Source: a virus. From it: a DNA stretch of 64,000 nucleotides. The stretch lies in the IMG/VR virus record IMGVR_UViG_3300045988_175628. One strand, given 5' to 3'. The position numbers were made by a program, and so were the translations under genes. Below are positions 1,607 through 19,939 of this stretch, piece by piece (within the stretch, counting starts at the first letter, position 1; each line of letters starts with the position of its first letter). Below the pieces are notes generated by a model that was given only the letters and a program-made list of their open reading frames with translations, was not told where the DNA came from and did no database searches.

Positions 1607-2365
1607 TTATTTAGCCAGGGATGGATAAATTCTTTCCCAATGAGATACAAATGTACCATCTTCTTGATATTCAGCTACAATAACATCTTTATTTGCTAAA
1701 TGAGCTGGTCGAGCACCACACAGTACTTCTCCATTCATACCAAAATTGATACACAAATTTGATTCCTCATCACGATGAACAAACCCAATTGCATCAGATT
1801 TAGCAGATAAAACTCGTTTGGTTTTACCTACAAGATCTAAGTCTTTTACAGACCCATCAAGTCCTTCAGATAATGCAGTGTCCTTAACGTGACCACAAAT
1901 AATCAGATTAGGAGCAGCAGATGCAATCAAGTCAATTACAGCTTCTAAAGCCTGTCTCCAAAAAGAATATCCTGCACCATTAGGAACTTGAGTAACATCT
2001 TTCACCTCATATTTTGTAGTAAATTGAGGCGAATTTTGCCACATTTTAAGAGCCATGTCTTTGGTCATTTCTTCCAAGGCTGTAATTGTATCAATTGTAA
2101 TATAAGTATATGGTTTTCCTGCATCCTTAATAGCCTTAATAGTTTCTTTTAAATCTTTAAGATTATTAATTTTAACTTTAAGAGCATCTACATATGTAGA
2201 ACCATTTTCAAAATCTAAAATAAGATTATTTTCTAATGTACTAAGGATGGTGGTTTTTCCTACTTTAGGAAGCCCAAATAAAATTAAATTTTTAGGATCC
2301 TGAGTTTCAGCGGGAACCTTCGCTGTTGGCAATACAATAGACATATTATGATAAACTATATACAA
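1607..2365 (-). CDS. Sak4-like RecA-fold AAA ATPase (ssDNA annealing/recombination)
   Basis: Walker A 'GLPKVGKTT', about 250 aa, adjacent to SSB-like and DnaB genes as in phage recombination modules. Confidence 0.55.
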   Translation of the reverse strand: MYIVYHNMSIVLPTAKVPAETQDPKNLILFGLPKVGKTTILSTLENNLILDFENGSTYVDALKVKINNLKDLKETIKAIKDAGKPYTYITIDTITALEEMTKDMALKMWQNSPQFTTKYEVKDVTQVPNGAGYSFWRQALEAVIDLIASAAPNLIICGHVKDTALSEGLDGSVKDLDLVGKTKRVLSAKSDAIGFVHRDEESNLCINFGMNGEVLCGARPAHLANKDVIVAEYQEDGTFVSHWERIYPSLAK

Positions 2366-3440
2366 TGTTGTTTCTATCTTTTTCTACTGTATCTACTACA
2401 GCTGTATCTATACCTCTAATATTAGCATTGATATCTAGATATTTTGTGAAATCAGTGATATCTCTTCCTAAAGGAAGTTCTTTAAATCATCCGACCTCTC
2501 CATAAAATCCACATCCTATTACTCTATCTGCAATACCATATCTATTCTTAGATACGATAATACTTCTGAATCTTCCAGCTAAACTATGAGGTCCGAGAAT
2601 TTTATATTCTCTATATGTTGGAATTTTATCTCTAGCAGGATAATATAATTGAAGAACTACATCACTATCTTGAACAGGTCCTCCTGAATCTTTTACGTCA
2701 TTTAAACCTGGTTCATTAAGTTCCGCTTTTCTTCTGTCCATAGAGGAGGACTCTCTATTCTGTTGCATTAAAGCCATTCAAGAAAGATAAAACTTGCGTT
2801 TTAGTGTAACCATAAAAGATGAAGTAAGATCAATCTCTGCTTTTAGAGTTCTACCTTCTTCAGGCCTAATTAGTGACATGTGATCAATAACTCCAATTAC
2901 CTTCTGTTTAGGATGTTTTGGAACATAAACTTCTTTAGTTCCAACTTGTTCTACAGTCCCTAATTTTTTCATTAATTCGCATACTTCTTTATAAAGAATG
3001 CGAGCGTTAAGTCCCTTGTCAAGAATAATTAATCTAGAACCTAGAGTTGCTACCCAATCTCTTGCTTTTTTAAGATACTGATAATCAGAATCGCTAAGAA
3101 TAGAATCAAAAGAAAGAATATCATTTATAGTAAGATATACACCAAATTCTTCAGCACAATACAAAGCCATAAGTTTTGCCAAAAGTACCTCAGAACCGAT
3201 TTCCAAACTAAAATATACAAGATATATAGGCTCTTTTGGATAATCCTTAAAAAGTCGGTAAATAAAATACAAAACTAAAGCAGTTTTTCCTGCAGAAGAA
3301 GCTCCAGATATACAATAATATCTTGAGGGTTGTATTCCCCCAATAATTTTATCTAATTTTGGCAATCCTACTGATAAACCTTTATTTTCTCCTTTTCTAC
3401 CTTGCTCAATTAAATGCCAAAGTAAATTTAGATCCTCCAT
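2346..3440 (-). CDS. dnaB: DnaB-family replicative helicase (RecA-like C-terminal domain); read through two in-frame TGA
   Basis: Walker A 'GASSAGKTAL', C-terminal 'VSKNRYGIAD' DnaB motif; ORFs 2778..3440 and 2487..2777 are joined in frame by TGA at 2778-2780, and the frame continues past TGA 2487-2489 to TAA at 2346-2348. Confidence 0.75.
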
Positions 3441-4039
3441 TAAAAATCCTGATATACATCAAAAGAAGTACCAATGTCAGGACTAAATCCTTCAGCCTTC
3501 ATCTGTGCAAATTCATTCCACTTATGAGAAGCAACAAATTCAAGTATAGAAACTTTACAAAGTTTATTCTCACGTGCCCATCGCAAAATTTCCATAACTT
3601 CTTTATGCTTCTCTGGATTATGTCCTATTTGAGAAGAATAATAAAAATAAAACTCTTCTAAAGTATAAAATTTCTTAGCAATATTTCTAAGACTAGCCAT
3701 TTTTCCATTAATCTGAATGAATGGTTCATAGCTATCAAATAATTCCTTCCCAAGAACTCCTGATTGTTTATAATACTTTTTTAGAAAATTCTTATTAAAT
3801 TCAATCTCATTAGGTATATAAGACTCTGGATTATAATTTTTCTTGATTATGGACTTTTCTTTTAAACTTTCAAACATGGTTTTCAGCTTTTGTTTTCCTT
3901 CACAATCTGTCCACCATTTTAAGAAAAGCTCAGAATGACCCTCCTCATCCCGAGCATAGAGAGTTAATCATATTAGTAATAATTCATCTGCACTAATATG
4001 ATATTCAGCCATTATATTAAGTATTGTATTTAACTCCAT
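3440..4039 (-). CDS. hypothetical protein upstream of dnaB (function unknown; positional candidate for a helicase-associated factor)
   Basis: ORF 3440..3877 extends in frame through TGA to ATG at 4037-4039; TAATG overlap with dnaB start. Confidence 0.45.
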
Positions 4040-4104
4040 TTATATGATTTTGGAAGTTAAATTCAAACCTAAGTACCTACGGTCATTACGATACTTAGTA
4101 TTAT

Positions 4105-5325
4105 TTAAAATCTATAATTAGTGATTATATCATCTCGTTTTCTTGTGATTACTTCTTCTCCTTTTAAAACTAAATCAAGTTGGCTTTCAGTAATAGTAAT
4201 ATAAGAAATCCCCTGGTGTGCCTTATTAAATCATGCCTCTTCATTAGTTCCTTTAATTACTAAAGTGAAGACTTCAGTAATCTTGTTACTAACATAACGT
4301 AATCCTCTTCCAAGAATTTGTTTTGCATCAATACCAGAACTAGTTCCACTAATTCTAATTTCGCAATTTATATCTGGGCAATCTAACCCTGCGTTTGCAG
4401 CTTTAGAAGTATTAAGTACACCAGAAGACTGCGCTTTAAATAAAGCAATAGTTTCGGAATTTTCCTTTTTTTTCTTTTTACTATGAAGAGTATATCCCAC
4501 TTTCAGAGACTCTGCATCCTTAATTGTTGCTGAAAAAGTAATAATTTTCTTATCCTTTCTTGCTTCTATAATTTTTTTAGCAATTTCGAATTTTTTTGGG
4601 TGCGACATAACAAATTTTTTACGCTTTTGCATTAGTTGCATTCACGCCATAGCAGAACTTAAAACTTGCTTCTTGTTATATCCCATCTTATAAGCATAAT
4701 TATTACGGAACTTTCAATCTGTTGCACATTTCATTGCTGCATCGAAATCAAAATTAAAAAATGCAAAAACAGAATTAAATTTTTGATTCATTACATAGTA
4801 ATCCTCCATGTCATCAACATCCACAAGAACTTTATAATATCTGAATGGGGATAGCCATCCATTTTTTATTGCTTCTTCAGTTGTAATAACATCAATTACT
4901 TTAGTATATAAGGAAAGTAACTCTTCTCTTCCATCAAGCCTTTCTAAAGTAGCTGTTAATCCTAAAAAGAAATCATACTTGACCTGATCAAATATTTTTA
5001 TAGATTGCTCTGACACAGCAGTATGAAGTTCATCAATTATTAAAAAATCTACTTTTCAGGATTTTTTTAAAATAGAATTAATAACCTCAACAGTAACATT
5101 CCCAAAGAATTTAGTTTTAGCTACATCTCTTAACCATTGTTCTTTAAGAATTGTCGTGGGTACAGAAATTAGGATTTTAGCATCTGGTCTGACTTTTAGT
5201 AACTTTACACAAGCCATTAAGGCCCCAAATGATTTTCCAACACCAGTACTTCAAACCCAAATTCCGTTCCCTTTATTATTAATTCATTTTTGAACGCCTA
5301 ACCTTTGACGTTGAGTTTTATCCAT
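4105..5325 (-). CDS. SF2 (DEAD/DEAH-box) helicase with several in-frame TGA codons
   Basis: Motif I 'STGVGKS', motif II 'DELH', helicase C-terminal domain; single frame 5325→4105 containing TGA at 5041-area, 4714-4716, 4642-4644, 4231-4233; TAA stop at 4105-4107. Confidence 0.7.
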
Positions 5326-6263
5326 TAGTCACGTCAATAGTAATTGCACTCATCACATCTATAAGTTTTGCAATTTGCACATTTATCTGCTAAATTCTCA
5401 TAAAAAGCTTCATCAGAGTCTTGATAAGCATAAACATGTTCTGTTTCTCCAGGAGGCCAACTAAAATCAGAATACCTAGGATATGAACCAGAGAGATCAG
5501 CAGTGTGCTCATAAACTTTATCATTAAGTTTGATAATATCTAAAATAAAGTTTAAACAATTATTTAACTCAGTTAAGTTGCCGTACTCTTTATGAGTATG
5601 AGCGCAATAATATCCGCACGAAATATTAACCGCAGACAAATTAATGTTTTCTTTTAAAGTTCCTACATCTGTCATTGTACCTCGTGCCTCTTTGTACTTG
5701 TACTTTTCTAGAAGACTATCTATATCTTCCAGAAATTCATCTGAAGTAATATCTATACCATTAGTATGTGTAATTAAATCTTGACCTCCCATTCTATCAG
5801 CTTGCAGTAAAAATCTACAATTATCAAAGAAATCAATGTTTAAACCTGCAACTTCAGCTCCTATACAACCCATCTCTTCTTGGGTTGTAAAACAAACTTT
5901 TAAGTCTGGGAGACAATATAAACAGTGTAAACAAATATAGATGCCAAAACAGTCATCTAATCCAAGTCCACACTGTTTTCCTGTCTTTTTATAATAACCA
6001 TAAATTTTATTTCCTTTGATTTTTGCACATTTTACACCTGTATAGTGTAGAATTTCATCAAGATGTGCCACTAGACAAGGATACACTGTTGGGTTTGTAG
6101 TGTTTTTTGTGATAAAAAGATTATTTTCATCATCCATTTCAAACTTTATACCTTCTATTGTATAACAAAAGTTAAGTATATAAGTTATCATAGCTTGTTC
6201 CTGTCTAGAAGGATGTACTATTTCGCATAGAGCTTTTAATAGTGTTGTATTTACTTGTTCCAA
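5325..6263 (-). CDS. cysteine-rich hypothetical protein (possible Zn-binding)
   Basis: 309-aa ORF with many Cys/His clusters; ends …CNYY-TGA(W)-R-D-TAA overlapping helicase start (TAATG). Confidence 0.45.
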
Positions 6264-6288
6264 AATTACTAAAATAAATTTTTAGAAC

Positions 6289-6876
6289 CTAATCTAAATT
6301 CCAATTTTTATATTCTGCTACTCGTTCAATATCTTTCTTAATTTTCATCCATTTATTGATATGATAATCAAGATCATTATCTAAAAGAAGCAGAACTTTG
6401 TCTCTGAGAGTTTTAAGAGCAATTGTAGATAAAGAGGATATTCTGGGGAGATCGGAAAGCTGGATTAAGGCTCGGAATTCTGCAAAAGACAATCCTGTAG
6501 GACTTACACGCAGCCTAATATCAGGATTAAGACAAAGCCTTTCCTTAATAACTTCCATTCTATTTCTAATTTTACCTCCAGCCTCTAATTCTGTAAGTTC
6601 GCGTTTTTCTTCATCTGTGAGCCAGATTCCTTGTGCAATAATAAACTTATCTGTAATCATCTTTTTGTTGAGAACATCAAGTTTATCAAAACATACATCC
6701 ATTAATTTTCCTACTGTAACTTTCTCATAGATAGGAGGAAGTCCTGTAAATAAAACAGAAATACTATCTTCCACATCTACATTATTAACTTTTCTTTGTA
6801 CATTAATAAAATCAAGTAGATCTTTATTAGTTTTAATGTCAGTCTCACAATCATGCATTAGGTACCTTGCAAACAA
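6289..6876 (-). CDS. hypothetical protein
   Basis: 195-aa ORF, terminates with TAG (only TAG stop I noticed). Confidence 0.4.
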   Translation of the reverse strand: MFARYLMHDCETDIKTNKDLLDFINVQRKVNNVDVEDSISVLFTGLPPIYEKVTVGKLMDVCFDKLDVLNKKMITDKFIIAQGIWLTDEEKRELTELEAGGKIRNRMEVIKERLCLNPDIRLRVSPTGLSFAEFRALIQLSDLPRISSLSTIALKTLRDKVLLLLDNDLDYHINKWMKIKKDIERVAEYKNWNLD

Positions 6877-7425
6877 TTCAGCATTGCAAGAATCTCAACA
6901 CTTTTGGATGTTTTCACGAATTACTAATTTTCCAGGTTTATAAATATCCCTATTAGTTAGCATTTGCTCGCAATGACGATGATATCGTTTTAGTTCGTTC
7001 TGAGAAATATCCATCAAGCGGATATTCATTCCAGATTTATCCTTTCACACTAAACTATTGATATCATTGTCTTTAGCAGTTATAGCTTCTTTCAACTTAG
7101 CTCCAAATTCTGTACCCATATTTAATCAAACTTAAATTCTTTCATACTATTCATCTCTTTATGTTTAATGAAGTTTATAAAATAATTAGCATTAAATTTA
7201 TAAACTGCAAAATCTTGTATTTCTCTATCATATCACTGAGTTTTTCCTGCTTCCACACTTTCGAATTGTAAATATCCAATATCCCCGATTTTAAGAGTAT
7301 CCTTATAATCTCAATTGGGAAGCATTACAACAGTAACATATTTTAAATCGTCACAAGGATCTCGATTAAGATCCTCAAACACTAATTTAGAATATTGTCC
7401 AGTTTGAATAGCAACTAAACAACAT

Positions 7426-8181
7426 TTAATTGTAATCATTATAACAATATCTAGAAAGGTAATTAATACCAAGTAAATGAAACCTGGTATTATCTACAGT
7501 AGTATCCATAGTACTATGGTAATGCCCATAATACCAATCTTCTACCAATCCTTTTTTAGACATTTCTTCATAGCAAGTCTGGAGATAGTTTCTTTCTTCA
7601 AGTAGTTCTTCTAGTAAAGTATCATCCCCATCACAAAATTCCATTACTAATTTTCCTATTCCATAAGGATATGCGCAGGTCGGGGCACAATGAGATGCAA
7701 TAATTTGACAATATGGGATTTCTTCAAAATTAGTTAACTCAATAATCTTTTCATCTTCCCAATATCCCCATTTATTATCCTTTCTATAAATTCTATCTAC
7801 AGAAGTTCCTCCTCCGATACATAAAATATTTTTATCCTTAAATTGAACTACAGAATAATCCTCAACAGCTTTAAATCTTTTATTATAAATTCCCTTGAAG
7901 AATTCTGGATTGTCATGATTGCCTCTTATAGCTATAATATAGTTATTAGTTTTTTCACAAAGTTTATTTAAGAATGAAATTTTCATGTTTTCAAGATTAG
8001 GAGAAAATCCCAATCCTACATCCCCACACAAAACAATACAGGAGTTGGATATTTTTTGGGAAAATCCAACTCCTGTTTTTATGAAATATTTCAAATAATC
8101 TAAATTTCCATGAATATCACCACAAAAATAAAGATTTTCTATATTTTCAGGTAATTTAATCAACATCTCCTTTGTAAGCAT
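7426..8181 (-). CDS. calcineurin-like metallophosphoesterase
   Basis: 'GDIHGN', 'GNHD' metallophosphatase motifs; TAA stop. Confidence 0.7.
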   Translation of the reverse strand: MLTKEMLIKLPENIENLYFCGDIHGNLDYLKYFIKTGVGFSQKISNSCIVLCGDVGLGFSPNLENMKISFLNKLCEKTNNYIIAIRGNHDNPEFFKGIYNKRFKAVEDYSVVQFKDKNILCIGGGTSVDRIYRKDNKWGYWEDEKIIELTNFEEIPYCQIIASHCAPTCAYPYGIGKLVMEFCDGDDTLLEELLEERNYLQTCYEEMSKKGLVEDWYYGHYHSTMDTTVDNTRFHLLGINYLSRYCYNDYN

Positions 8182-8803
8182 TCATAATGGACTTCTCCTT
8201 ACGAAGCCAAGAACCTTCCTCCATTGCAATATCTAGAGCTGTACGAGAAATAGATTCTTCTTCAACTTGTTCTTGAACAAGTCTACCAGTTTCATCACTA
8301 TCTCCATTTAACCAATTAAAAGTAGCCCAATCTCCTTCATCAAAAGCTGCATCTACAATTTCATAGATAAGTTGAGTTGTTTCAATTTCCTTATCTACAG
8401 TTAATTTAAATGGGGTTACGTTATCCTCAAAAGTTTCACTAATTGCAGGAATATCAGGATAGATATACGCTGCATCATTTTCATTCATATATGTACGAAT
8501 CCACGAATGATGCAGATATTCTTCATCTGCACGTTCTTTATAATACTGTTCCAAAACAGCTAATCCTTGAACTCCATAAAAATTAGAAAAGCTCATATAA
8601 AGATTATGATTATATAGTTCGTGCTTTAATTGTCTTAATAAAAGCTTTTGAATATTTTCGGATAATGTACACTTTCTTCTCTTAATGTCTAGTTTTTCTG
8701 TTGATTCTTGTGCCTCAGTTTTTGTTTTCATTGTTTTTGCGTTCCTTGGTCATGAAACAGCGTAACTTCTTATTATACACTGTCATCTCTTCAATTTCCT
8801 CAT
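8156..8803 (-). CDS. ferritin-like iron-storage protein (extends 5' through TGA codons)
   Basis: Similarity to non-haem ferritin FtnA: '…DWATFNWLNG…EQVEEE' vs E. coli 'DYPTFNFLQWYVSEQHEEE'; frame continues upstream of 8731 through TGA 8750-8752 and 8783-8785 to ATG 8801-8803. Confidence 0.65.
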
Positions 8804-8878
8804 CGGTTTCGTAATCTTTAGCATACACTAAATAACAACCATTAGGAGTAATCTGCGTTATGCGGATTTCATATTTCA

Positions 8879-9244
8879 TTACCAGATATGTAATTTATAG
8901 AGATTTTCATGAAAATTTAAATTGAATTGTAATTCAAAACATCCAAATAAATAAGCATCAATCTCAAATTCATGGTCATTAACTTCAAATCTGAGATTGA
9001 AATCATCATCAGTAGTATAGTACTTTGTGATATCAGCCTCGTTAAAGAAGATTAAATTAACATCCTCTATAATTATTGGAATTTCTTCCAATTCTATAGT
9101 AACTTCATCTATGTATCCAGATAATGTGGAATATCTATTGAGATACTTCTCAATTTTTGGATCTAGCGATATATCACTGCCGTACTCATGATTAATACAT
9201 GGATACCAGTGATTTCCTATTTTTTTAATTTTAAAATGAGCCAT
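8879..9244 (-). CDS. hypothetical protein
   Basis: 121-aa ORF, TAA stop. Confidence 0.4.
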   Translation of the reverse strand: MAHFKIKKIGNHWYPCINHEYGSDISLDPKIEKYLNRYSTLSGYIDEVTIELEEIPIIIEDVNLIFFNEADITKYYTTDDDFNLRFEVNDHEFEIDAYLFGCFELQFNLNFHENLYKLHIW

Positions 9245-9674
9245 TATCTTCTGGTAAATCTAAGCAATCACTTGCATGAGTAGCAAACAAATCTGCTAAC
9301 TCATTAAATTTATTGTTATTATGTCCCTTTACTCATACAAAGGTAACCGTATGAAACTTTAATAATTCATAAATCGGATATCACAAATCAAGATTCTTTT
9401 TGGATTGATCATTGTCTTCAACCCACTTTGTAAGATGCTTGTTGTTAATACTCGATACTACATATTGAGAATCCGAATATATGGTTATTTGTTCAGGATT
9501 TACAAAATATCTGAGACATTCTAAAACCCCTAAAAGTTCCATACGGTTATTAGTAGTATTTTTATAACCCCTATAAAGTTTTTTTACAACTTTTCCATTT
9601 TGGGTTATGATTGCAGAGTATCCTCCACAGTTAATTGATGGTTTGTAACTACCGTCAGTTCAGCATTCAAACAT
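9231..9674 (-). CDS. rnhA: ribonuclease H (RNase HI family); three in-frame TGA codons, one at the conserved Trp of WVKGH
   Basis: Hand translation gives …ECWTDGSY…NNRMELLGVLECL…FVWVKGHNNNKFNELADLFA…; TGA at 9334-9336 encodes the W of 'WVKGH'; not in ORF list because it is split by TGA. Confidence 0.8.
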
Positions 9675-10021: not shown

Positions 10022-10171
10022 CCTTTACCTCCTCATACTCTGCAAATTCATAGATATAAGTTTTTCCCATAAAGGTGGAGTCACTATCTGTTAAAGCTTT
10101 TTCGAAGCATTCTTTGAATTTGTCTACATTTTTAGTAGAAACTTTACCATGAATTAAAACTTCGTATTCCA

Positions 10172-10537
10172 TTAGAATTTTTTAGGATTCATTGACCATA
10201 CTTCTTCTTCAATAGCTTGAGATACAGCTATTCGTACTTCACGAATATTATCTTTTGTAACCTCAGCTACTTTAAAAGGATGTTCAAGAGCTCTTTTGTA
10301 TGCTAACTCACGACCAACCTTTTTAATAAAACGATCTTTAGTTGAACATACTGCTACTCCAAAGGATAGTTTAGTACGATCCTCACTCAGTAGACTGCAA
10401 ATGGTGATTCTCGGCATAGGTTGGATTGAATGTTTATAAAACCCAACAACATCATCAAGATTAAAATCTTGAGTACCTACGACTAAGGCTTTTACAGTGC
10501 TTAATGGAAAACTGTAATAAAAACGTGCATTTTTCAT
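10172..10537 (-). CDS. hypothetical protein
   Basis: 121-aa ORF. Confidence 0.4.
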   Translation of the reverse strand: MKNARFYYSFPLSTVKALVVGTQDFNLDDVVGFYKHSIQPMPRITICSLLSEDRTKLSFGVAVCSTKDRFIKKVGRELAYKRALEHPFKVAEVTKDNIREVRIAVSQAIEEEVWSMNPKKF

Positions 10538-10538
10538 A

Positions 10539-11894
10539 TTATAAATTAATTAATTGTCCTCCAGTATTATGAAGTCTATAAAGTCCCGAAGTAGTTAATA
10601 ACTCTCCTCGTACAGAATCAAATATACAAAATGTATCCACATAAGGAACAGGACCAGTATAGTTAACTAGGCCTTCTCTGAAAATTCTATAACTGGGAAT
10701 AGGTGATTCAGAGTAAGTTTTCATATCATATATAGTTTTACCCACCTTATAAAAATCTATAGGAAATTGTTTTGCAATGATTTTTGCAAATTTTACATTA
10801 TAAAAAGGACTAATAGAATAGATTCTATCCAAGAAATATAAAGAATCATTAATTTTCCAGAGAAGCGCTCTTGCGCAAATCTTTTTTTTCTCATCAAGAG
10901 CTACCACAATTTTTGTATGAGCTCGCTCATAAAATTCAAAAAAATCTTGACATTCTGGAAATCTCATACAGGAATGATGTAATGTAGAACTAATACAGTC
11001 AAGTTCTTCTGCATAATTGTCTTCTAAATAACCCTCTCGAATTCTTTCAGAATCCCAAATTTCTACATTTAGCTCTTCTCCCCATCCAGAAACAAAATTA
11101 GATATTCTTTCAATATCACATCTGTCTAAATAAGGTTTCCAATTAAATTTATTAAGTAGTCTTCCAATAGTAGTTGTTCTCCTATTAGAGCTCTCCCAAG
11201 GATTGGAACATTGCTCAATCTTTTCTATCGGAAGATATGAAACTTTACCAGTATTAAAGTCTATATCAATAAAATTGAGTTTCGGAGAAGGATTTAGTTC
11301 TAAAATAGCATCTAATCCTGCGGGAAACTCTTTCATTACAGATGTAAACTTATCAGACATTTTAATAATATTCCTATCCAAATCATATTCCTCAAATTTA
11401 ATAGGAACATCGCATTCAGTTATAGAAGTTAATATCCAACTAGATACAGAAGAAATAACTCTCGCACCTTTTTTGGGAGGTTTCCTAAACCCCATTGTGT
11501 CAAAAGTTCTTATTGGAACTAACTGTCCTTGCCATAGTAACTCTCGTATACTTCCATGTAAATACTCTTCATAATCATATTCACTGTCAGAATAATACAA
11601 TGTAATGGGATCTAGAGTATGAGCTTTCTTTTTAAGTTTTTCTTTTAAACTTTCCTCCCTATTACTCCAAAGTTCATGCACCTCCTTCCATGATAAATCC
11701 TTTGGACTAGGAGTGTCTATCCAGCGTAAGGAACAGTTAAATATATCTGGAGTTATACGAGATAAAATAAATGGTTTGCAGCTTAACTCATAACGATAGC
11801 CTTTTATACGCAATCCTTTATTAAATTGTTCTACTAAACCGAGTTCATTACAGAATGTAACGAACTCCTCGTAAAAAAAATCTAATACATCCAT
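10539..11894 (-). CDS. hypothetical protein (451 aa)
   Basis: Long uninterrupted ORF, no recognisable motif. Confidence 0.45.
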   Translation of the reverse strand: MDVLDFFYEEFVTFCNELGLVEQFNKGLRIKGYRYELSCKPFILSRITPDIFNCSLRWIDTPSPKDLSWKEVHELWSNREESLKEKLKKKAHTLDPITLYYSDSEYDYEEYLHGSIRELLWQGQLVPIRTFDTMGFRKPPKKGARVISSVSSWILTSITECDVPIKFEEYDLDRNIIKMSDKFTSVMKEFPAGLDAILELNPSPKLNFIDIDFNTGKVSYLPIEKIEQCSNPWESSNRRTTTIGRLLNKFNWKPYLDRCDIERISNFVSGWGEELNVEIWDSERIREGYLEDNYAEELDCISSTLHHSCMRFPECQDFFEFYERAHTKIVVALDEKKKICARALLWKINDSLYFLDRIYSISPFYNVKFAKIIAKQFPIDFYKVGKTIYDMKTYSESPIPSYRIFREGLVNYTGPVPYVDTFCIFDSVRGELLTTSGLYRLHNTGGQLINL

Positions 11895-12280
11895 TTTTTA
11901 TTTCTCTTATATATCTTTTTTGACTCTTTAATTTTAGTTTTGGGAAGAGGTTTTCCATATAATTGGATTTCCTCTTCCCGTGATTTTTTTCTTACAGCTT
12001 TTACGTAATCCAAAATACGTCTATTTTCTAGAGAATTTAGCTTTCCACTCATCTCCCCATCTTTTTCCTTTTTCATAACGTAGATCGATTGTGTAATCAC
12101 TATAATCGTAGTCGCTAACTATTGTCTTGGGATTGGGAATATTACAATCAAAATCCTCATCTTGCAATCTTAAAAAATTACTTTTTAGATAATTTTTTAT
12201 TCTTCTTTTAATAATTCTGTGATAAATTCCTTTAAGACCTTTATCTTTAAAAATTGGAAGCTTGCGACTCTTTGACATAG

Positions 12281-12772
12281 TTAAATTTTACGATTTAAAT
12301 AATTACTGAAATCTGTTTTCACAGGACAGTATTCTTCATTAGCAAATAATGATGATGTAAGAATCATATCTGCAGTTGTTCTATTTGTAGCAAAAGCAAT
12401 GTTATATAAAGAAGCTAGTCGTGTTAATGCCGATATATCTGTTTGATGCCCTTGTTGAATAAGATTATCACAAAAGAAAATCAATACATCAACTTGCCCT
12501 TGAGCAATCATAGCTCCTATCATCTGATCTCCTCCAAGCGGACCTGATAGAACTGGAATTACATTTAGAGGAGCTGTATATTGATTATAATAACAACAGT
12601 GAACAGAATCATAATCTCCAAAATCTACTCTAATGGAACTAAGTAACTTAGCGGTTGTTCCAGTGGCAATTAAATGATGAGAATATAATGTTGTTCCATT
12701 AAATCTAACCCAATCAACTAACTCTTGTTTTCGAGCATCATGTGCAATAAGTGCAATATTAAGTATCTTCAT
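12281..12772 (-). CDS. mgsA: methylglyoxal synthase-like protein
   Basis: 'IALIAHDARK', 'ATGTTAKLL', 'GPLGGDQMIGAMIAQGQVDVLIFFCDNL' match MgsA signature regions. Confidence 0.75.
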   Translation of the reverse strand: MKILNIALIAHDARKQELVDWVRFNGTTLYSHHLIATGTTAKLLSSIRVDFGDYDSVHCCYYNQYTAPLNVIPVLSGPLGGDQMIGAMIAQGQVDVLIFFCDNLIQQGHQTDISALTRLASLYNIAFATNRTTADMILTSSLFANEEYCPVKTDFSNYLNRKI

Positions 12773-13096
12773 TTAAAACAATTTTTCTGGATCTTTAAAG
12801 TTCAATAATTCATTAGGTGAAATATAATAGTAACCTATTTTGTAGTCTGCATATTTCACAGTTTTACATTGCTTATAAACCTTAACATCAGGAAATCCTA
12901 AAGGAAATAACCAATAATAATAAATATCCTCAGAAGTACTGGTTTCCCAATTTTTATTTCCAAATCTAGATAGCAAGATCATTTTAATCTGTGCTTTAGT
13001 TAATTCAATGTAGTCTCCTCTTTCTCCGTGAACTACTCTTTCAAACCCATCTGCAAATAAAAATCCATTTTTAAGAAACAATTTTTGCTCAATCAT
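12773..13096 (-). CDS. hypothetical protein
   Basis: 107-aa ORF. Confidence 0.35.
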   Translation of the reverse strand: MIEQKLFLKNGFLFADGFERVVHGERGDYIELTKAQIKMILLSRFGNKNWETSTSEDIYYYWLFPLGFPDVKVYKQCKTVKYADYKIGYYYISPNELLNFKDPEKLF

Positions 13097-13111
13097 AATT
13101 CACATTTTATA

Positions 13112-13187
13112 GGGTGTATAGTCGAATTTGAATCGACGACCTCCAGAGTCACAATCTGGCACTCTAACCAACTGAGCTATATACACC
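13112..13187 (-). tRNA. tRNA-His (anticodon GTG)
   Basis: Cloverleaf: acceptor GGTGTAT/ATACACC, D-arm AGCTCAGTTGGTTAGAGT, anticodon loop TTGTGAC, T-loop TTCAAAT. Confidence 0.8.
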
Positions 13188-13386
13188 ATGTAGGAGGTTA
13201 TTCCTCCTTATATACCTTGTTCTCTTTTAAGAATTTACCAATATAAACTCCTACACTTAAAGGAGCATAGACTCCTGCAAATAATAAAAGTATGTAATCA
13301 GAAAATTTCCAAGTTTTCCCATTGTCGGATCCCAGAATAATTCCTGCACAAATTAAATAATATACTAAAGAAAATAGCATCATAAT

Positions 13387-13881
13387 TTATTCTTTAGGGA
13401 TTATAAAACTAGACGGGATTTTAACAAGAAAAGTACTGTCAACTTTGACAATTGCATCTAGTCTACCTTTACGTCTGTATACTTTAAACATAGCTTCTCT
13501 ATCAGTAGTAAAACTGCTAAAATCAATTTTACCTTTTAGAGAACGTATTAAAGAAATTCTAGGACAAACACACCATGATGTACCTAACTCAAAGACTATA
13601 TAATCTGCTTGTCCAAACAACCATCCTTTTTCTCCATTTACATTTCTTAATTCAATCCAATGAATACAATAATTAGGAAGAGAATCAGAACGATTAGTTT
13701 TCTTTGCAGCTTTCACATCAAAACTGTTTGTCCCAATCCAAATATCAATGTGACGATAAATATCATCTTCCTTACTAGCTTCCTCTACCAAAGAAGATGA
13801 TAACCCTCTAGCTTTACAAAAATCAGAAGCAAACTCTGCTTCCTTTTTCTTACCTTCTTCTAGAAAATTATTAGGAATCAT
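13387..13881 (-). CDS. hypothetical protein
   Basis: 164-aa ORF. Confidence 0.4.
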   Translation of the reverse strand: MIPNNFLEEGKKKEAEFASDFCKARGLSSSLVEEASKEDDIYRHIDIWIGTNSFDVKAAKKTNRSDSLPNYCIHWIELRNVNGEKGWLFGQADYIVFELGTSWCVCPRISLIRSLKGKIDFSSFTTDREAMFKVYRRKGRLDAIVKVDSTFLVKIPSSFIIPKE

Positions 13882-14129
13882 GTTTGCAATGAGCTTCTAC
13901 CTCTTCTAAAGAACTAAATATTTTATCTTCTCTAATAGATTCTTGTTTCCCATCAAGACGATAATAGATACTTACGTATCCTGGGTATGTGTTCTAATAG
14001 AGGTAATTCTATAAGGGGTTGTATCAGGAACTTCTACATCAATAAAGTATCCTCTAGAAAAATCAAGAGCAGTTTTCTTTAAATAAACTTCTTGCCCTAT
14101 AGCGTATTTTGTATGTATTATTAATTCCA

Positions 14130-14675
14130 TTAATCTACAATTTGCACAAATCTTTGTTTTTCTGTAGTTACATAAGGATTTTTATCCACTACATCAACAG
14201 TTACAATTTTTTGTTTTTTCGTAAACCATCTTGGAAGGAACCACTTCCTTTGCTTAATTGGTTCTTTTTTCCAAGAAGTAATAATATACTTTTCATTGTT
14301 AAACTCGCTTGACACTCCTACTTCATTTGGATATTCAAGATGTAGACAAGTTTTAGCCCATTTATCTTGAATACACGTATCAAGTTTAAAACCAGGATCT
14401 TTAAATATAGTATCTCTAATAAAAATAGTATCTGACTTAGAAATATGTTCTAACTGATATTGTAAAGATTCTAATTTCTTATCCTTTATTTTGAGTTCTT
14501 GGGCTACTTCTTGCATTTTCACAAGAATTGAATCATTCATGTGGGTCATTTGAGCTAACTCAAATCTAAAAACTATATTACTCTCTTTCAAGGCTGAGTT
14601 TTCAGCCGAGTATGCTTTTTCATTATTAACGGATATATCTAATGATTTATTTAAATCATTTATCCTTACATTCAT
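14130..14675 (-). CDS. hypothetical coiled-coil protein
   Basis: 181-aa ORF. Confidence 0.4.
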   Translation of the reverse strand: MNVRINDLNKSLDISVNNEKAYSAENSALKESNIVFRFELAQMTHMNDSILVKMQEVAQELKIKDKKLESLQYQLEHISKSDTIFIRDTIFKDPGFKLDTCIQDKWAKTCLHLEYPNEVGVSSEFNNEKYIITSWKKEPIKQRKWFLPRWFTKKQKIVTVDVVDKNPYVTTEKQRFVQIVD

Positions 14676-14824
14676 GAAGTAAACAGTTATTCCTAAAATA
14701 ATTGCAACTCCACTTAAAATTTTAGTTATTCAACTTCTCATACGTTATATGTTTATAAATAGCCCATAACATAGGACTAAGTATGATAGCAATAGCTAAT
14801 AGTAATCCAATCAACCACCACATA

Positions 14825-15361
14825 TTAATTATCGCAAAGTTCAACAATTTTGAATCTTAGTGCTTCACTAAATCGAATTAGTTCCATACGATCTTTTATT
14901 CTTTTCCCATACCATTTACCAGCTCCAGGATTATGTAGTTTAATTGCTCTATCAATATCTCTAGTTGGATTATAATGGTCATTCATCATTTCAAACATAG
15001 TTAAAGCTTTATCAAGATCCCAAGCATCCTCTAACACAAAATTAGTGTTATATAAGTTATTAACTTCATCAACATAAATTTTAGTAATTTGGAATGGGCC
15101 TATTGCATTTTTACTAGATTTTACTTTTGGATTTCTCTCACATTCTACTTCAACAAGTGCCATGATAAAAACTTGCCATTCTGTAAGAGAATCACGAGTT
15201 TCTGTGATTGTAGTAATTGGATTAGTTAGAACTACGGGATTTGGTTTAATTGGGCTCCCAAATATTGCAAATATTCCAATAATAGTTACACAACCTATAA
15301 AAATTCGTTTATAAATCATATTTTTAAGTTTTATAGCAGAGGTGGCAGGACTCGAACCCAC
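14825..15361 (-). CDS. putative lysozyme-like/lytic transglycosylase-domain protein with N-terminal TM segment
   Basis: TM helix then '…EVECERNP…GPFQI' reminiscent of SLT E…GxxQI motif. Confidence 0.35.
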   Translation of the reverse strand: MGSSPATSAIKLKNMIYKRIFIGCVTIIGIFAIFGSPIKPNPVVLTNPITTITETRDSLTEWQVFIMALVEVECERNPKVKSSKNAIGPFQITKIYVDEVNNLYNTNFVLEDAWDLDKALTMFEMMNDHYNPTRDIDRAIKLHNPGAGKWYGKRIKDRMELIRFSEALRFKIVELCDN

Positions 15362-15420
15362 ACCTGGAGTTTTGGAGGCTCCCGTTTACGGTTTTGCTTA
15401 CCACTACAGTTTTCACTGCC
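15341..15420 (-). ncRNA. atypical tRNA-like element (T-arm GGGTTCGAGTCC, CCA-anticodon-like loop CTCCAAA, no canonical acceptor pairing)
   Basis: Strong T-arm and a Trp-like anticodon stem-loop, but I could not find a 5' acceptor strand complementary to the 3' end. Confidence 0.3.
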
Positions 15421-15479
15421 TTTCGTTTGTGGTCTAGAGTACGTCTTCACCATATCTTTCGACTTAGGTGCACGATTAT

Positions 15480-15890
15480 CTACTCGTTCGCGGCTAGAAT
15501 TCCTTCTATTCCGACGTCGTTACCATCAGCATTATCTGTTAAGGATTCAACGTTATCATCGTGTCCACTATTAGTGTTTCCACTAATAGGCTCCATTTGT
15601 TTAAAATTATTTTTGTAATCTTGACAACTGTTTACGCCAATAGAACTTCTATACTGAGAAGAGAAATGCACAGGTAAAATATATAAGTCTTTAGTATCTA
15701 AGTCAACTCCAATAAAATAATCTATATCTTTTTCAGTATACAGTTTTACTTTATATTCTCCCATATTATGAGATATTTTTCTCACTGGAATTATTCTTCT
15801 ACCATTACTTTCTATTTGTATAGTTTTAATCTGCAGTTTAATATATTTATTATCTTTTTCTGCAATTAAATCTACTTTTCCATTCTCCAA
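15480..15890 (-). CDS. small PD-(D/E)xK-like nuclease candidate
   Basis: 'VDLIAEKDNKYIKLQIKT' resembles D…(D/E)xK nuclease core; paralog of 30759..31157; sits immediately upstream of tRNA-like element 15341..15420. Confidence 0.3.
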   Translation of the reverse strand: MENGKVDLIAEKDNKYIKLQIKTIQIESNGRRIIPVRKISHNMGEYKVKLYTEKDIDYFIGVDLDTKDLYILPVHFSSQYRSSIGVNSCQDYKNNFKQMEPISGNTNSGHDDNVESLTDNADGNDVGIEGILAANE

Positions 15891-16044
15891 AACAGGTTTA
15901 AATAGATTATACCCGTTTTCAATAAATTTCTGTTCTACTAGCAGGCTACCTAAGTAACCTTTTTCAATTGTTTTTCAATCACTCATAATTTTATTCAGTT
16001 AAAGACCGCTGTGCTACCATTACACTACACCCCTATTCTTTCTA

Positions 16045-16497
16045 TTATTTCTTTCGACTCCTATGAATTAGATCTTCTTTACCTTTAATAGGTGCCTTTT
16101 CTACAAATAGTTCTCCAGAAGGCCCTAAAATAGTAGCATAAACATTAAATCCATTTATAGTAAGATATGTGTAAATTACATCTAGTTCAGAACCAATATA
16201 AGATTTTATAAGACGAGATAGTCCATAATCACCTTCTATAGAAAGTACTCGGGAACCTTTTGCATGCCAAAGACATTTTTCTTGTTCATTCCAAGTAGGA
16301 GGCATTGTAGAAACACAAGCCTTGCCTCCAGTTATATATAAATAAAGTTCTTCACTCATAGGAAGTTTAGTTATAGTATAATTGTCATAAGTATAAGGAG
16401 AACTACATATACCTTCAGTACTAATAGTAAAACTAGGTATACTAGATATGTCAGTTATATTTCGACATGAAATCATTAATTCTCCAGGGAGTCCCAT
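16045..16497 (-). CDS. hypothetical protein
   Basis: 150-aa ORF. Confidence 0.4.
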   Translation of the reverse strand: MGLPGELMISCRNITDISSIPSFTISTEGICSSPYTYDNYTITKLPMSEELYLYITGGKACVSTMPPTWNEQEKCLWHAKGSRVLSIEGDYGLSRLIKSYIGSELDVIYTYLTINGFNVYATILGPSGELFVEKAPIKGKEDLIHRSRKK

Positions 16498-16602
16498 ATC
16501 GCCTTTGGGACCTGGATCACCTCCTCAATTTGATCCTACTGGAAATGTTGTTGTTGAATTAGAATTTGTATTATTCATTTTTTAACATATTTAAAATATT
16601 TG

Positions 16603-16690
16603 TACCTCTGACAGGACTCGAACCTGCACCCTACTATTACTTCAGACTACGGCCTAAACGTAGCGTGTCTACCAGTTCCACCACAGAGGC
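16603..16690 (-). tRNA. tRNA-Leu (anticodon TAG), type II
   Basis: Acceptor GCCTCTG/CAGAGGT, anticodon loop TTTAGGC, long variable arm, T-loop TTCGAGT. Confidence 0.75.
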
Positions 16691-16695
16691 CTCTT

Positions 16696-17196
16696 TTATA
16701 GTAATAAATGTAATTGATTTATATCAGTTACTACTGTAACCATTTCTTTCACATTATCTTGAATTAATGGGCAGTCTAGGAACCATTGCCAATGATTTCC
16801 AATTAAACAAATCAATGGTTTTTTCTTACGTCGTCTACATTCATCTAGTGTTAAGCATAATTCTGCTAAAGTGCCAATTCCTCCAACCTGAACAATAAAT
16901 ACATCACTTGAGGAAATTAACATTCTAAGTCTATGATAAATATCAGGAGCTACAGTGTATTTGGTTAAATATGGATTACCTTTAGTAAATCCAAATGTAG
17001 CACAAGTAAAACCTTCCACTTCAGCTCCAACAGCGCTAGCTCCTAACGAGACAGCTTTCATCAATCCTCCATAACCTCCGTTATAGACTTTGTAGCCACA
17101 TTCAGCAAGAATATTTCCTATATAGACAGAATCTGAATATTCTTTAGAAGCCTCATCTGTTCTTGCTGCTCCAAAAAAAGTTGCTATTTTACCCAT
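16696..17196 (-). CDS. LOG-family (TIGR00730) nucleotide-binding/phosphoribohydrolase protein
   Basis: 'GGYGGLM' and 'GGIGTLAEL' LOG signatures. Confidence 0.7.
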   Translation of the reverse strand: MGKIATFFGAARTDEASKEYSDSVYIGNILAECGYKVYNGGYGGLMKAVSLGASAVGAEVEGFTCATFGFTKGNPYLTKYTVAPDIYHRLRMLISSSDVFIVQVGGIGTLAELCLTLDECRRRKKKPLICLIGNHWQWFLDCPLIQDNVKEMVTVVTDINQLHLLL

Positions 17197-17391
17197 ATAC
17201 TTTCTCTAGTTGAAGTTCAACTACATCTTTAAAAACTTTATACTTATCATCAAGTAAGTTTACTGAAGCTGTACGTTTATCTTTATTAAATGTAAACATT
17301 GTTACATGTGAAAAGTTAAAAACATATGTATCTCCAGTTTCTAAAACTATCCTAATTACTAACGGTTTCATAATTTATACTTTCATTTTTG

Positions 17392-17476
17392 CGGAGAGCA
17401 GTGGAATCGAACCACATGCCAGAAAGGCACACATTGCTTAGCAGGCAAGCCCTATCACCATCAAGGATTACTCTCC
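17392..17476 (-). tRNA. tRNA-Ser (anticodon GCT), type II
   Basis: Acceptor GGAGAGT/GCTCTCC, anticodon loop CTGCTAA, long variable arm, discriminator G. Confidence 0.7.
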
Positions 17477-17482
17477 AAACCT

Positions 17483-17863
17483 TTAGACGTCCTTCAAAAA
17501 ATTAAATCTAAGGACAATGTAAATTATTCCTGTTATTACTATTGCTTCAGCAAGTAATCCAATAGAAATCATACTTCCTAGAGCTGCAATAACCCAAATG
17601 AGAATTGCTGTTGTTAAGTTAGCTATATTAGTGGATTTGTCCTTCCAAATGATTCCAGCACCAATAAAGCCAACTCCAGAAGCTATCTGGGCAGCTACTC
17701 TAGAAGGGTCTCCACCTATTCTTGTAGAGATATATGTAAATATAAAAGATCCTAACATTAGTAGAACAACGGAACGAATTCCAATTACCTTGTTAGTTTT
17801 TTGTCTTTCATATCCAAGAACTGCTCCACAAAAAATTAATATAGCTAAATTAAGAAAGAACAT
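17483..17863 (-). CDS. MgtC/SapB-family membrane protein
   Basis: 'LGYERQ' motif and multi-TM profile typical of MgtC. Confidence 0.65.
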   Translation of the reverse strand: MFFLNLAILIFCGAVLGYERQKTNKVIGIRSVVLLMLGSFIFTYISTRIGGDPSRVAAQIASGVGFIGAGIIWKDKSTNIANLTTAILIWVIAALGSMISIGLLAEAIVITGIIYIVLRFNFLKDV

Positions 17864-18208
17864 ACTAAATATAAACTAACTTGTTACATTTTGGACATGA
17901 ATAGATGCTTATAACATTTCCATTAGCATCCTTAGTTTCTCCTATATATCGTAAAGGAGATCCACATATATTACAGTAAAGCATTGTTAAAATTATTTAA
18001 ATATACTGTTAAAAACAACCCAAGCCCATACTTCCTCATAGGCTATGATTTTCTCACACATGCAAAAAGCATATCTGCCATAAGGATGAATAAAAATATG
18101 CTCCTGAGTCATGTTATTTCTAAAAGTATAACCTTTCTTTTTAAGGTATCTTAAAAGGAACCACCTAGAAAATTTGTTTGTATGTATATAAATATACTGT
18201 GTCATAAA

Positions 18209-18640
18209 TTAATTGACTTTAATTTTTCCATTCCATTTTGGCAAACTTTTTCCTTCTTGTACTGCTTTCCGCCAATCATGTTCATAATCAATAACTTTTT
18301 GAATATAATCTAGAAGTTCATGTCTCTTATAATTGCTCAATAATGTAATAATATTTTCCCTTCCAACAGGATTAGCAGACTGACTAGCAAACTCAGGAAG
18401 TTTTTTACCCTCATCAATACACCGATCCACAATATACTTAGCTATATCATATCCAGATTTCTCTTCCCCTAAATCATGATCTAGACAAATTGCATCAGGC
18501 CATTCTTTCTCAAGAAAATCAATCGCTTCTTGGTAAGATTGAGCCCATATTACTTTACAATTTCTACCAATTGGACTAAAATTCATCCAATCATCTTCCA
18601 TTGGATTCCTAGCGTCATCTACCCAAAGAAGTGTTTTCAT
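18209..18640 (-). CDS. receiver (CheY-like)-domain protein
   Basis: 'LLWVDDARN…DHDLG' acidic pocket pattern of receiver-like domains. Confidence 0.45.
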   Translation of the reverse strand: MKTLLWVDDARNPMEDDWMNFSPIGRNCKVIWAQSYQEAIDFLEKEWPDAICLDHDLGEEKSGYDIAKYIVDRCIDEGKKLPEFASQSANPVGRENIITLLSNYKRHELLDYIQKVIDYEHDWRKAVQEGKSLPKWNGKIKVN

Positions 18641-19095
18641 TATTCTTAAATTTTTCTTTTAAATATACAGAGGTATTTATATAAAGGTGCAAATTGAGGT
18701 ATAACAACTTCTTGTATAAGTTCCCATCCTTGATCTCCGTGTAAATTTAGCCAATCAATAAAATCCTCACCTTGATATGGAGTAAAAGTATCTTCCTTGT
18801 ATTCTCATTTTGTCATTGTACTTTAACTTACTATATAAGATTTAATGCTCTTATAATTCCAGCTTCTAAACAATCTAGATAACTAGTATATACTTCAGAG
18901 AAAGTATCATATGGTTCATCCTCTTGAGAATCAATTTTATAAATAACAAACATCCAACCATGAGGATACCATTGTATCTCTACATGTAGGAATTTTTTCT
19001 CCCGCAGCCAATCCAAAATATCATATAAACTAGAAGAGTTATTATATAATGGAATCTTTTTATTAGCTAACTTTTTAATTTGGTCATTAATCATT

Positions 19096-19284
19096 TTATA
19101 ATTCTTTAGTCTTTCCACAACTAATACACTTACTATATGTAGTACAAGCTAAATTAGACGTTCCAAGGGAAAGTAAACTTGAAAAAATTCTTGCTACACC
19201 AGAAGCCCCATATCCATCTTCTGTATAAATAACATGAATAGTTTCCCTACCACAATTTGGACAGTATGTTTTTATTTGTTTCAT
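19096..19284 (-). CDS. small zinc-ribbon protein
   Basis: CPNCG…CISCG paired CxxC. Confidence 0.4.
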   Translation of the reverse strand: MKQIKTYCPNCGRETIHVIYTEDGYGASGVARIFSSLLSLGTSNLACTTYSKCISCGKTKEL

Positions 19285-19923: not shown

Positions 19924-19939
19924 ATTATAATGTTATTAG

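Follow-up and report, generated by a model that had tools for sequence, protein, structure and literature searches.

The DNA considered here is a stretch of 64,000 nucleotides from the IMG/VR virus record IMGVR_UViG_3300045988_175628, hereafter the window. Its source is a widespread gut phage of about 171-179 kb with at least 24 tRNA genes: proteins of the window occur on contigs of 170-175 kb in human gut assemblies from hundreds of samples, and the relatives in IMG/VR measure 172-179 kb. Genes of this phage read through in-frame TGA codons. The best explanation, to which we assign a probability of about three in four, is that TGA encodes tryptophan in most genes and is decoded by a phage-encoded tRNA with a UCA anticodon, derived from tRNA-Trp, the gene of which is split and the transcript of which needs splicing. 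The recoded genes belong to the replication, structural, lysis and homing-endonuclease classes.

Recoding of the in-frame TGAs is confirmed. Every in-frame TGA was translated as X before a Pfam scan, and single matches continue through these positions (DnaB_C 21-319, RNase_H 6-135, LicD 45-258, PDDEXK_5 7-121 and ResIII/Helicase_C). This bears out an earlier note on this DNA, which had claimed readthrough of RNase H, LicD, DnaB and a helicase. The triplets listed there at 2778-2780, 2487-2489, 4231, 4642 and 4714 are in frame in minus-strand genes, both HNH genes (33967..34701 and 41060-41605) carry three TGAs each, and the plus-strand M15 peptidase gene carries TGA also, though with a weak Pfam match (E = 0.004). 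Readthrough of a ferritin gene has to be withdrawn, the TGAs concerned being upstream of the ATG of the public 191-residue call.

Coding density was calculated for four codes with one simple greedy gene caller. In the window it rises from 0.768 under code 11 to 0.868 when TGA is a sense codon, compared with 0.784 for TAG and 0.794 for TAA. The increase follows the release of TGA, not that of TAG or TAA, and is therefore specific to TGA; it is biggest at 1-10 kb (from 0.77 to 0.914), 30-42 kb and 60-64 kb. The re-calling of genes proposed earlier thus favours TGA as sense, code 11 being neither equal nor better. Standard-code callers do shred the genome, as had been predicted. Code-11 calls on a near-identical public contig give DnaB as pieces of 220 and 143 residues and an RNase H of 53 residues, whereas code-4 calls on near-identical contigs give a DnaB of 364 and a helicase of 406 residues.

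The rest of the genome is represented by 135,190 bp, in 12 loci assembled without conflicts, of the relative IMGVR_UViG_3300003155_000005 (178,874 bp). It encodes a P22-type portal, tail-fibre-like proteins and very large structural proteins. Density increases there from 0.695 to 0.914 with TGA freed (TAG 0.733, TAA 0.776), and is 0.915 with TAA as the only stop. Under code 4 the mean length of open reading frames (ORFs) changes from 190 to 310 residues and the longest from 973 to 2490, a measure of what is at stake in gene calling. There are 195 TGA codons as against 281 TGG; TGA is found in 69 of the 112 genes of at least 100 residues, with up to 13 in one gene, and the stops are TAA (89) and TAG (23). 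The structural genes and the DNA polymerase of this reference strain are recoded with respect to TGA; TAG is not recoded. The portal shares 44-49% identity with gut phage records, DnaB shares 26-34% with the replicative helicases of crAss-like and other gut phages, and megablast of 12 kb revealed no close GenBank phage record.

What decodes TGA? The earlier note had reported no tRNA with a UCA anticodon in the window. Default ARAGORN gives 20 tRNAs in the window, to which Rfam adds Gly(UCC) and a Glu(CUC), and none has this anticodon; among the other 135 kb neither program found a tRNA of any kind. The tRNA scan that the note had called for succeeds in the intron mode of ARAGORN. This mode identifies exactly two intron-containing tRNAs in the window, both on the tRNA strand and each enclosing an endonuclease ORF, one of which, at 15336-16034 on the minus strand, carries UCA. 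Control scans gave none in the 135-kb rest of the genome, none in reversed decoys and one in five shuffles. The decoder of this phage is one that default searches miss, and an atypical locus hidden in the window, one of the options considered earlier, is where it lies.

An intervening sequence of 605 nt (15397..16001, minus strand), delimited with ARAGORN and intron-less alleles, separates U34 from C35 within the UCA anticodon. Exon 1 (16002..16034, minus strand) comprises an acceptor strand (AGGGGTG) followed by TA, the D arm (GTGT, AATGGTA, GCAC), A, and the 5' half of the anticodon arm, which ends GCGGT CUU (CTT in the DNA) at U34. Exon 2 (15336..15396, minus strand) contributes the remainder of the anticodon arm (CAAA, ACCGT), a linker (AAACG), a second hairpin (GGAGC-CUCCAAA-ACUCC, with CCA in the loop), AGGT, the T arm (GTGGG, TTCGAGT, CCTGC), the other acceptor strand (CACCTCT) and G73. 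The predicted spliced junction is GCGGUCUU-CAAAACCGU; likewise GCACAGCGGUCUU-CAAAACCGUAAACGGGAGCC. The joined exons form an RNA of approximately 93 nt with a CUUCAAA loop, the anticodon UCA and the body of a tRNA-Trp: acceptor stem, D arm and T arm are canonical (7/5 acceptor/T, 4-bp D stem) and the second hairpin occupies the position of the variable arm. Exon 1 is identical in nine of the ten related contigs examined.

The intervening sequence is probably a group I intron, judging from its boundaries, its fold and the protein it encodes. It is preceded by U and its last base is G, the junction CTT|CAAA being placed against 56 uninterrupted copies, and its 3' 244 nt fold better than shuffled sequences (z = -2.67). 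The ORF within it (15480..15986, minus strand, 168 residues) specifies a PD-(D/E)XK homing endonuclease of the I-Ssp6803I family, labelled PF11645 PDDEXK_5 in public calls, and matches PDB 2OST over residues 13-118 (E = 0.005); 2OST is I-Ssp6803I, which is encoded by the group I intron of tRNA-fMet in Synechocystis. The second split gene, a tRNA-Leu(UAA) at 40863..41708 on the minus strand, is interrupted at CTT|AAAA (U34|A35) by an intron of about 760 nt, the 3' 161 nt of which fold with z = -3.29 against shuffles, and which holds an HNH ORF (41060-41605) with three in-frame TGAs. ARAGORN labels this gene Phe(gaa) with boundaries one base off; it was re-read against strain L003, which has a homologous, uninterrupted Leu(UAA) at the same place, beside tRNA-Ile.

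The suppressor tRNA is one of a family, with more than 40 intron-less members in metagenomes. The joined exon junction GCACAGCGGTCTT|CAAAACCGT (= GCACAGCGGTCTTCAAAACCGT) is the one present in those 56 uninterrupted copies, which lie on JGI metagenome contigs, many of 100-230 kb. They include 30 distinct full-length genes, all with the same two-hairpin layout: acceptor stem, D arm, a first arm with the CUUCAAA loop, a linker of about 5 nt, the second hairpin, a 4-nt linker, T arm, acceptor strand and G73, followed in most cases by an encoded CCA end. Members are 92-94 nt long. The loop of the second hairpin always contains UCCA and is mostly CUCCAAA, the normal Trp anticodon loop. The fifth helix covaries. 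In an alignment of 31 sequences, 98.1% of cells pair and 15 pairs show changes on both sides, compared with 8.8 ± 1.2 in shuffles; every pair of the second hairpin (five) and of the acceptor stem (seven) shows compensatory changes, and the signal is lost when the partner columns are slid. The first arm is constant in this set by design of the search pattern. A second search, using the two loops and the T loop, recovered ten further members in genome bins together with one probable true tRNA-Sec, and in these ten the first-arm stems also covary (CCGGT/ACCGG, CTGGT/ACCAG, CCGGA/TCCGG, GTGAT/ATCAT and GCAGA/TCTGT). All 31 aligned members have G73, and 28 of them have A1-U72.

BLAST of a 96-nt RNA against GenBank phages matched positions 1-42 and 47-96 each to annotated tRNA-Trp genes of cultured phages, and there was no full-length match to the two-hairpin RNA in those records; BLAST with the split gene returned no match there. 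As the halves match tRNA-Trp separately, the suppressor looks like a tRNA-Trp in which the anticodon arm has been duplicated and the first copy turned into UCA. The layout recurs on large contigs from gut and rumen, dozens of them, and both hairpins covary, which suggests a selected design. Among 20 loci of at least 5 kb with a tRNA of this family, seven to eight display a clear TGA-specific density gain, the others being tRNA arrays too short to judge. A distant relative (L081/L086, 48% portal identity) has an ordinary Trp-like UCA tRNA of 74 nt. Default ARAGORN labels the intron-less forms 'SeC(tca)', and earlier surveys may have counted them as suppressors without comment.

At the locus corresponding to 15336-16034, strain L302 (5305-5400) has a contiguous tRNA(UCA) of 91 nt in place of the split gene, with a 3-nt D loop, an ATCGTTA T loop and an extra hairpin containing CCA, followed by a free-standing HNH gene. 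Rfam returned no match to this 91-nt tRNA-like RNA.

Is the split gene functional? It could be a dead remnant, with UGA read near-cognately by host tRNA-Trp(CCA), perhaps with RF2 weakened by a factor from the phage, or else by some other decoder of the host. We consider this unlikely. Nine close strains carry the gene and all nine have the interrupted form, the intervening sequence has no Rfam group I match, and TGA suppressor tRNAs were detected in only 35% of code-4 phages (Borges et al., 10.1101/2021.08.26.457843), all of which speak for a remnant. The exons, however, are intact and identical across strains, and once joined give a full-scoring tRNA that fits a covarying family. The insertion obeys the boundary rules of group I introns and carries an endonuclease of the tRNA-intron type. 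Some 195 TGAs outside the window, up to 13 to a gene, need efficient decoding, and L302, the only strain without the gene, has another UCA tRNA at that position.

The distribution of TGA along the window bears on the code of the host. Counts were made on curated window genes of at least 100 residues. At 1-10.1 kb there are 18 TGA and 25 TGG codons; at 10.1-30.5 kb (block A, 23 genes) 2 and 84; at 30.5-42 kb 12 and 10; at 42-60 kb (block B, 13 genes) 0 and 33; and at 60-64 kb 8 and 4 (Fisher p = 1e-16 for the five blocks). The two TGAs of block A are both near uncertain starts. Block A (10100..30500, minus strand), which is compatible with the standard code, encodes metabolic proteins (GMP reductase/IMPDH-like, PurA, NAMPT and NAD synthase) and, besides the suppressor tRNA, five ordinary tRNAs; block B (42000..60000, minus strand) has genes for an ABC transporter, a binding protein with an OmpA domain, tRNA-Met and tRNA-Glu, together with a Pistol ribozyme and small ORFs. 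An SPFH protein and most of the tRNA genes are likewise in these TGA-free blocks. The earlier description of the recoding as genome-wide holds in that TGA terminates no gene and is present in most of the genes scored outside the window, but not for these two blocks.

TGA is used as a terminator nowhere in the phage. ORFs of block A end with TAA (21) or TAG (5), and those of block B with TAA (17), TAG (5) and, in one doubtful ORF, TGA, which makes 38 TAA and 10 TAG for the two blocks combined. Overall TAA accounts for about 80% and TAG for about 20% of stops. The TAG stop noted earlier is real (6289-6291) but is not the only one, as TAG ends about one gene in five. In four minus-strand ORFs (5325-6191, 36759-37340, 62138-63163 and 54581-54943) a TGA precedes the TAA stop by one to four codons; these could be former TGA terminators with a TAA backup, and their number is, by impression and with no formal test, slightly above chance expectation.

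A host that itself uses genetic code 4, as in the Mycoplasmatota, would be mirrored by its phage with no need of a switch. The low G+C content (31-38%) and the absence of TGA stops would suit such a host, which the earlier note had listed among its options. We regard it as a long way from probable because TGG is still the majority Trp codon (281 to 195 outside the window) and whole blocks avoid TGA, some 38 kb of the window containing only 2 TGA as against 117 TGG. The phage, moreover, has its own UCA tRNA gene, and its nearest DnaB relatives belong to Bacteroides phages and crAss-like phages.

The reading of TGA as Trp, synonymous with TGG, is supported by three lines of evidence, of which we judge the codon columns in relatives to be the strongest. 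Where identity is at least 95%, window TGA columns are occupied in relatives by TGA (514), TGG (64) or CGA (2); at 80-95% identity by TGA (129), TGG (21) or CGA (1); and below 80% by TGA (40), TGG (12) or TAT (9). Conversely, window TGG columns show TGA in 60, 26 and 41 cases at these three levels. We caution that the counts are of sequences and not of independent events, the direction being unambiguous nonetheless. Below 80% identity TAT is the chief replacement at TGG columns, and Tyr codons appear likewise at TGA columns. None of the relatives compared has a GGN, TCN or AGY codon at a TGA column.

Alignment with conserved Trp residues provides the second line. In RNase H, alignments with PDB entries place TGA98 at the conserved Trp of 'DLW', TGA114 at the Trp of E. 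coli 'WVKGH', and TGA5 with Phe or Tyr. The earlier note had drawn attention to the second of these, correctly as to the E. coli residue; the triplet is at 9333-9335, not 9334-9336, and other proteins have Lys or Phe there. TGA53 of LicD aligns with the Trp of 'YWLEGGSLLGA' in FKRP ('YWLxGG'). In DnaB the TGA221 column is Val or Ile and uninformative, while codon 318 is TGG in one close relative. The alignment check of Trp against Gly suggested earlier is answered in favour of Trp by the RNase H and LicD columns and by the codons of the relatives. The third line is the tRNA-Trp body of the decoder gene, and the original preference for Trp stands on all three.

Glycine, as in code 25, or serine would be the alternative amino acids, and both are highly improbable. 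The ARAGORN label 'SeC' might be quoted in their favour, and a long variable arm with G73 comprises identity elements of SerRS (PMC5389517). TGG, followed by TAT, dominates the replacements at TGA columns; the lack of GGN there excludes code 25, and that of TCN and AGY tells in the same way on serine. TGA aligns with conserved Trp residues in RNase H and LicD, and the tRNA-Trp body, with 7/5 acceptor/T and a 4-bp D stem, is unlike tRNA-Sec. Fragmented code-11 calls on some public contigs might suggest that the in-frame TGAs come from pseudogenes, divided genes or faulty assembly. This reading is effectively refuted by the recurrence of the same TGAs in independent assemblies from hundreds of samples, by domains that stay in frame across them and by a density gain specific to TGA.

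How would decoding by the split tRNA operate? The machinery of a standard-code host would translate the TGA-free genes first. The suppressor transcript would be spliced, most likely as a self-splicing group I intron, and the tRNA charged with Trp by the host TrpRS; genes containing TGA would become translatable once the spliced, charged tRNA builds up. The gene is interrupted by 605 nt in the window strain, and therefore the tRNA must be spliced to work. We infer a code-11 host, in which TGA is a stop, and the TGA-free genes and the tRNA would therefore be expressed first; a temporal switch of this kind has been proposed for recoded phages (Borges et al.). On the ribosome the first arm would decode, coming after A26 as in any tRNA, with the second hairpin at the position of the variable arm, which ribosomes tolerate in class II tRNAs.

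Several points weigh against this account. Neither split gene is matched by the Rfam Intron_gpI model at E values up to 5 over 15000-42000, and R/S-like core elements were seen by eye in the Leu intron only. Given that no Rfam group I core is found in either intron, intron type and splicing are inferred, and a disrupted suppressor gene is conceivable. The early-to-late reading of the blocks would be by analogy with published recoded phages, and here recoding extends to the replication genes. A long extra arm and G73 are SerRS identity features as well, and it is the codon evidence alone that speaks for charging with Trp. The relative used for the rest of the genome, 96-100% identical, is not the window's own genome. 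Finally, six-frame translations of the rest of the genome contain no release-factor GGQ and no class I synthetase HIGH/KMSKS motifs (RF1, TrpRS), by a search for motifs only.

The identity elements of E. coli TrpRS are the anticodon CCA and G73. For this reason we put forward, tentatively and with more doubt than confidence, that the second hairpin is a functional 'identity arm' rather than a relic: it would show the wild-type Trp loop (U-CCA-A) to TrpRS, such that the UCA tRNA would still be charged efficiently with Trp by the unmodified host enzyme. As a variant the RNA may alternate between two folds, one arm serving for charging and the other for decoding. An identity arm, if real, would represent a previously undescribed separation of tRNA identity from decoding, to which the window strain would add an intron that makes code switching dependent on RNA splicing. 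The two-hairpin tRNA offers a testable handle on the amino-acid identity of an opal suppressor and possibly a component for engineering the reassignment of UGA.

TGA-recoded (code 4) gut phages were reportedly described by Ivanova et al. in 2014. Borges et al. (bioRxiv 10.1101/2021.08.26.457843) cover the clades Jade, Sapphire and Agate as well as certain crAss-like phages that are recoded in this manner. The phage considered here resembles the code-4 gut phages of that study (10.1101/2021.08.26.457843) in being a large gut phage with in-frame TGA as Trp and TGA dropped as a stop, with the machinery for code change in a standard-code region, with recoded structural and lysis genes, and with recoded and non-recoded blocks in one genome. 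It differs from the published examples in that replication genes (DnaB, helicase, RNase H and the DNA polymerase of the reference strain) are recoded, the TGA-free part being a tRNA and metabolic region, in that a motif search found no RF1 or TrpRS motifs, and in a suppressor tRNA whose gene an intron divides and which bears an additional anticodon-like arm. Of the published code-4 phages, about two thirds are without a detected suppressor tRNA, and split or atypical genes may explain part of this. TGA-recoded gut phages are already known; the architecture of the two-hairpin tRNA-Trp(UCA) decoder is without match in GenBank phage records and in the searched literature, where incomplete coverage applies to the lack of any description of a tRNA with two anticodon arms.

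Group I introns in the anticodon loop of bacterial tRNAs include that of cyanobacterial tRNA-Leu(UAA) and the Synechocystis tRNA-fMet intron, which encodes I-Ssp6803I. The window introns share with them insertion in the anticodon loop directly after a U and an intervening sequence that ends in G. In the Leu(UAA) gene the break falls at the classic U34|A35 site, and the ORF in the UCA tRNA intron is of the I-Ssp6803I PD-(D/E)XK family, as in Synechocystis. The phage setting, a suppressor tRNA as host gene and the lack of an Rfam group I match set them apart.

Compared with tRNA-Trp, and with the tRNA-Trp(UCA) of Mycoplasma and mitochondria, the suppressor family has the same G73, Trp-type D and T arms, CUUCAAA loop and, mostly, A1-U72, but is some 92-94 nt long instead of about 75 nt owing to the extra hairpin (U-CCA-A) between the anticodon arm and the T arm. 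It departs from the canonical class I cloverleaf of about 76 nt with a variable loop of 4-5 nt and a single anticodon arm. A long arm between the anticodon and T arms, the UCA anticodon and the ARAGORN label 'SeC' recall class II tRNAs, tRNA-Sec and the allo-tRNAs of Mukai et al. (PMC5389517), which have long variable arms. The acceptor/T combination is nevertheless 7/5, as opposed to 8/5, 8/4 or 9/3, and the D stem has 4 bp; the 8/5 acceptor/T with 6-bp D stem of tRNA-Sec is absent; the extra arm reproduces an anticodon arm, its stem being of 5 bp and its loop, of 7-9 nt, containing an invariant UCCA, unlike that of class II or allo-tRNAs; and the codon evidence indicates Trp rather than Ser, Sec or Cys.

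The recoded genes of the window are, on the minus strand unless stated, as follows. The DnaB-like replicative helicase (2346..3440, 364 residues) has TGAs at 2778-2780 and 2487-2489, the DnaB_C match spanning TGA221. A hypothetical protein of 199 residues (3440..4039), called as a code-4 ORF, has TGA at codon 24, where relatives have TGG or TAT. The SF2 helicase (4105..5325, 406 residues; Pfam ResIII, DEAD and Helicase_C) contains six TGAs, including 4231-4233, 4642-4644 and 4714-4716, and its codons 239 and 376 are mostly TGG in relatives. Two further hypothetical proteins each have two TGAs, one of 276 residues (6289..7119) with a TAG stop and the same length in public code-4 calls, the other of 105 residues (7122..7439) with no TGG, for which relatives show TGA and occasionally TGG or TAC. 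RNase H (9231..9674, 147 residues; Pfam RNase_H) has TGAs at 9660-9662, 9381-9383 and 9333-9335. A free-standing PD-(D/E)XK endonuclease gene (30759..31157), with two TGAs that are both spanned by PDDEXK_5, is restricted to some strains and missing from L003 and L006. Three TGAs are present in both the HNH endonuclease of 244 residues (33967..34701; Pfam HNH_3 and DUF2116) and the LicD-family transferase of 292 residues (39121..39999; Pfam LicD), and public calls agree with both lengths, those for the HNH protein being code-4 calls. On the plus strand, all four genes of a cluster at 60021..61891 contain TGA; among them is the M15-type peptidase (61051-61482), where the weak match is to Peptidase_M15_3 and codon 116 is TGG in two relatives. 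A hypothetical protein of 341 residues (62138..63163) has two TGAs, one just before TAA, and is 347-349 residues long in public code-4 calls.

Two RNAs were considered as decoders and rejected. That at about 37440-37560 (minus strand) is a Y-RNA-like (YrlA-type) permuted tRNA mimic instead. It lies between tRNA-Pro and tRNA-Ser(UGA), and the strands AAAGTCTCT/AGAGACTTT pair into a long closing stem around the mimic, which consists of a T arm, an acceptor-like stem capped by a loop, and a D arm; its score with Rfam YrlA, 35.8 bits, is below threshold, and in strain L001 the acceptor-like stem shows compensatory changes. A protein of 560 residues (DUF2828/DUF7788, 28013-29695) might be its Ro-like partner. 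The other, at 54134-54208 (minus strand), has the loop GUCUCAU with an unusual G32 and is read as Glu(CUC). It and a call at 45655-45726 (minus strand) are low-scoring extra Glu(CUC) calls made by relaxed ARAGORN only, one of them supported by Rfam; with both included there would be three Glu(CUC) genes in the window.

A tRNA-like gene of 80-81 nt at 35541-35620 (minus strand) scores 39.4 bits with the Rfam tRNA model. Its anticodon, CUA (amber), lies in a loop of 13 nt or, in an equivalent drawing, on a stem of 8 bp that includes two mismatches. The gene is conserved throughout the strains, an A/G change preserving the loop-closing pair, and TAG is found as a stop only, never in frame. Recoding of TAG, which this gene brought to mind, was rejected: there is no in-frame TAG through which a gene continues, and freeing TAG adds no density. 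In strain ERR14037750_7765 (L001 2533-3451, corresponding to about 37430-37730 of the window) an extra, canonical tRNA-Trp(CCA) stands beside an inserted HNH gene of 276 residues; the window has neither.

Genes for homing endonucleases (HNH, PD-(D/E)XK, LAGLIDADG, GIY-YIG and Endonuclease_7) are dispersed throughout the genome, at 30759-31157, 33967-34701 and 41060-41605 of the window and in loci L001-L009, and vary among near-identical strains. Those located within the otherwise TGA-free tRNA region carry TGA. Outside the window, an ORF of 521 residues in the reference strain (L250 18667-20229) has, by eye, ThyX-type ends and a middle that resembles an intein of the LAGLIDADG type.

Host-like metabolic genes are dense at 20213-27548, 39121-40672 and 45925-49128 (minus strand). 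The set comprises a GMP reductase/IMPDH-like protein, adenylosuccinate synthetase, NAMPT, NAD synthase, isochorismatase, IspD with LicD, and an ABC transporter with a substrate-binding protein fused to an OmpA domain. The Pistol self-cleaving ribozyme of block B is full-length (55379-55449, minus strand; RF02679, 72.8 bits against a gathering threshold of 34.5) and lies among small ORFs about 0.4 kb from tRNA-Glu(UUC).

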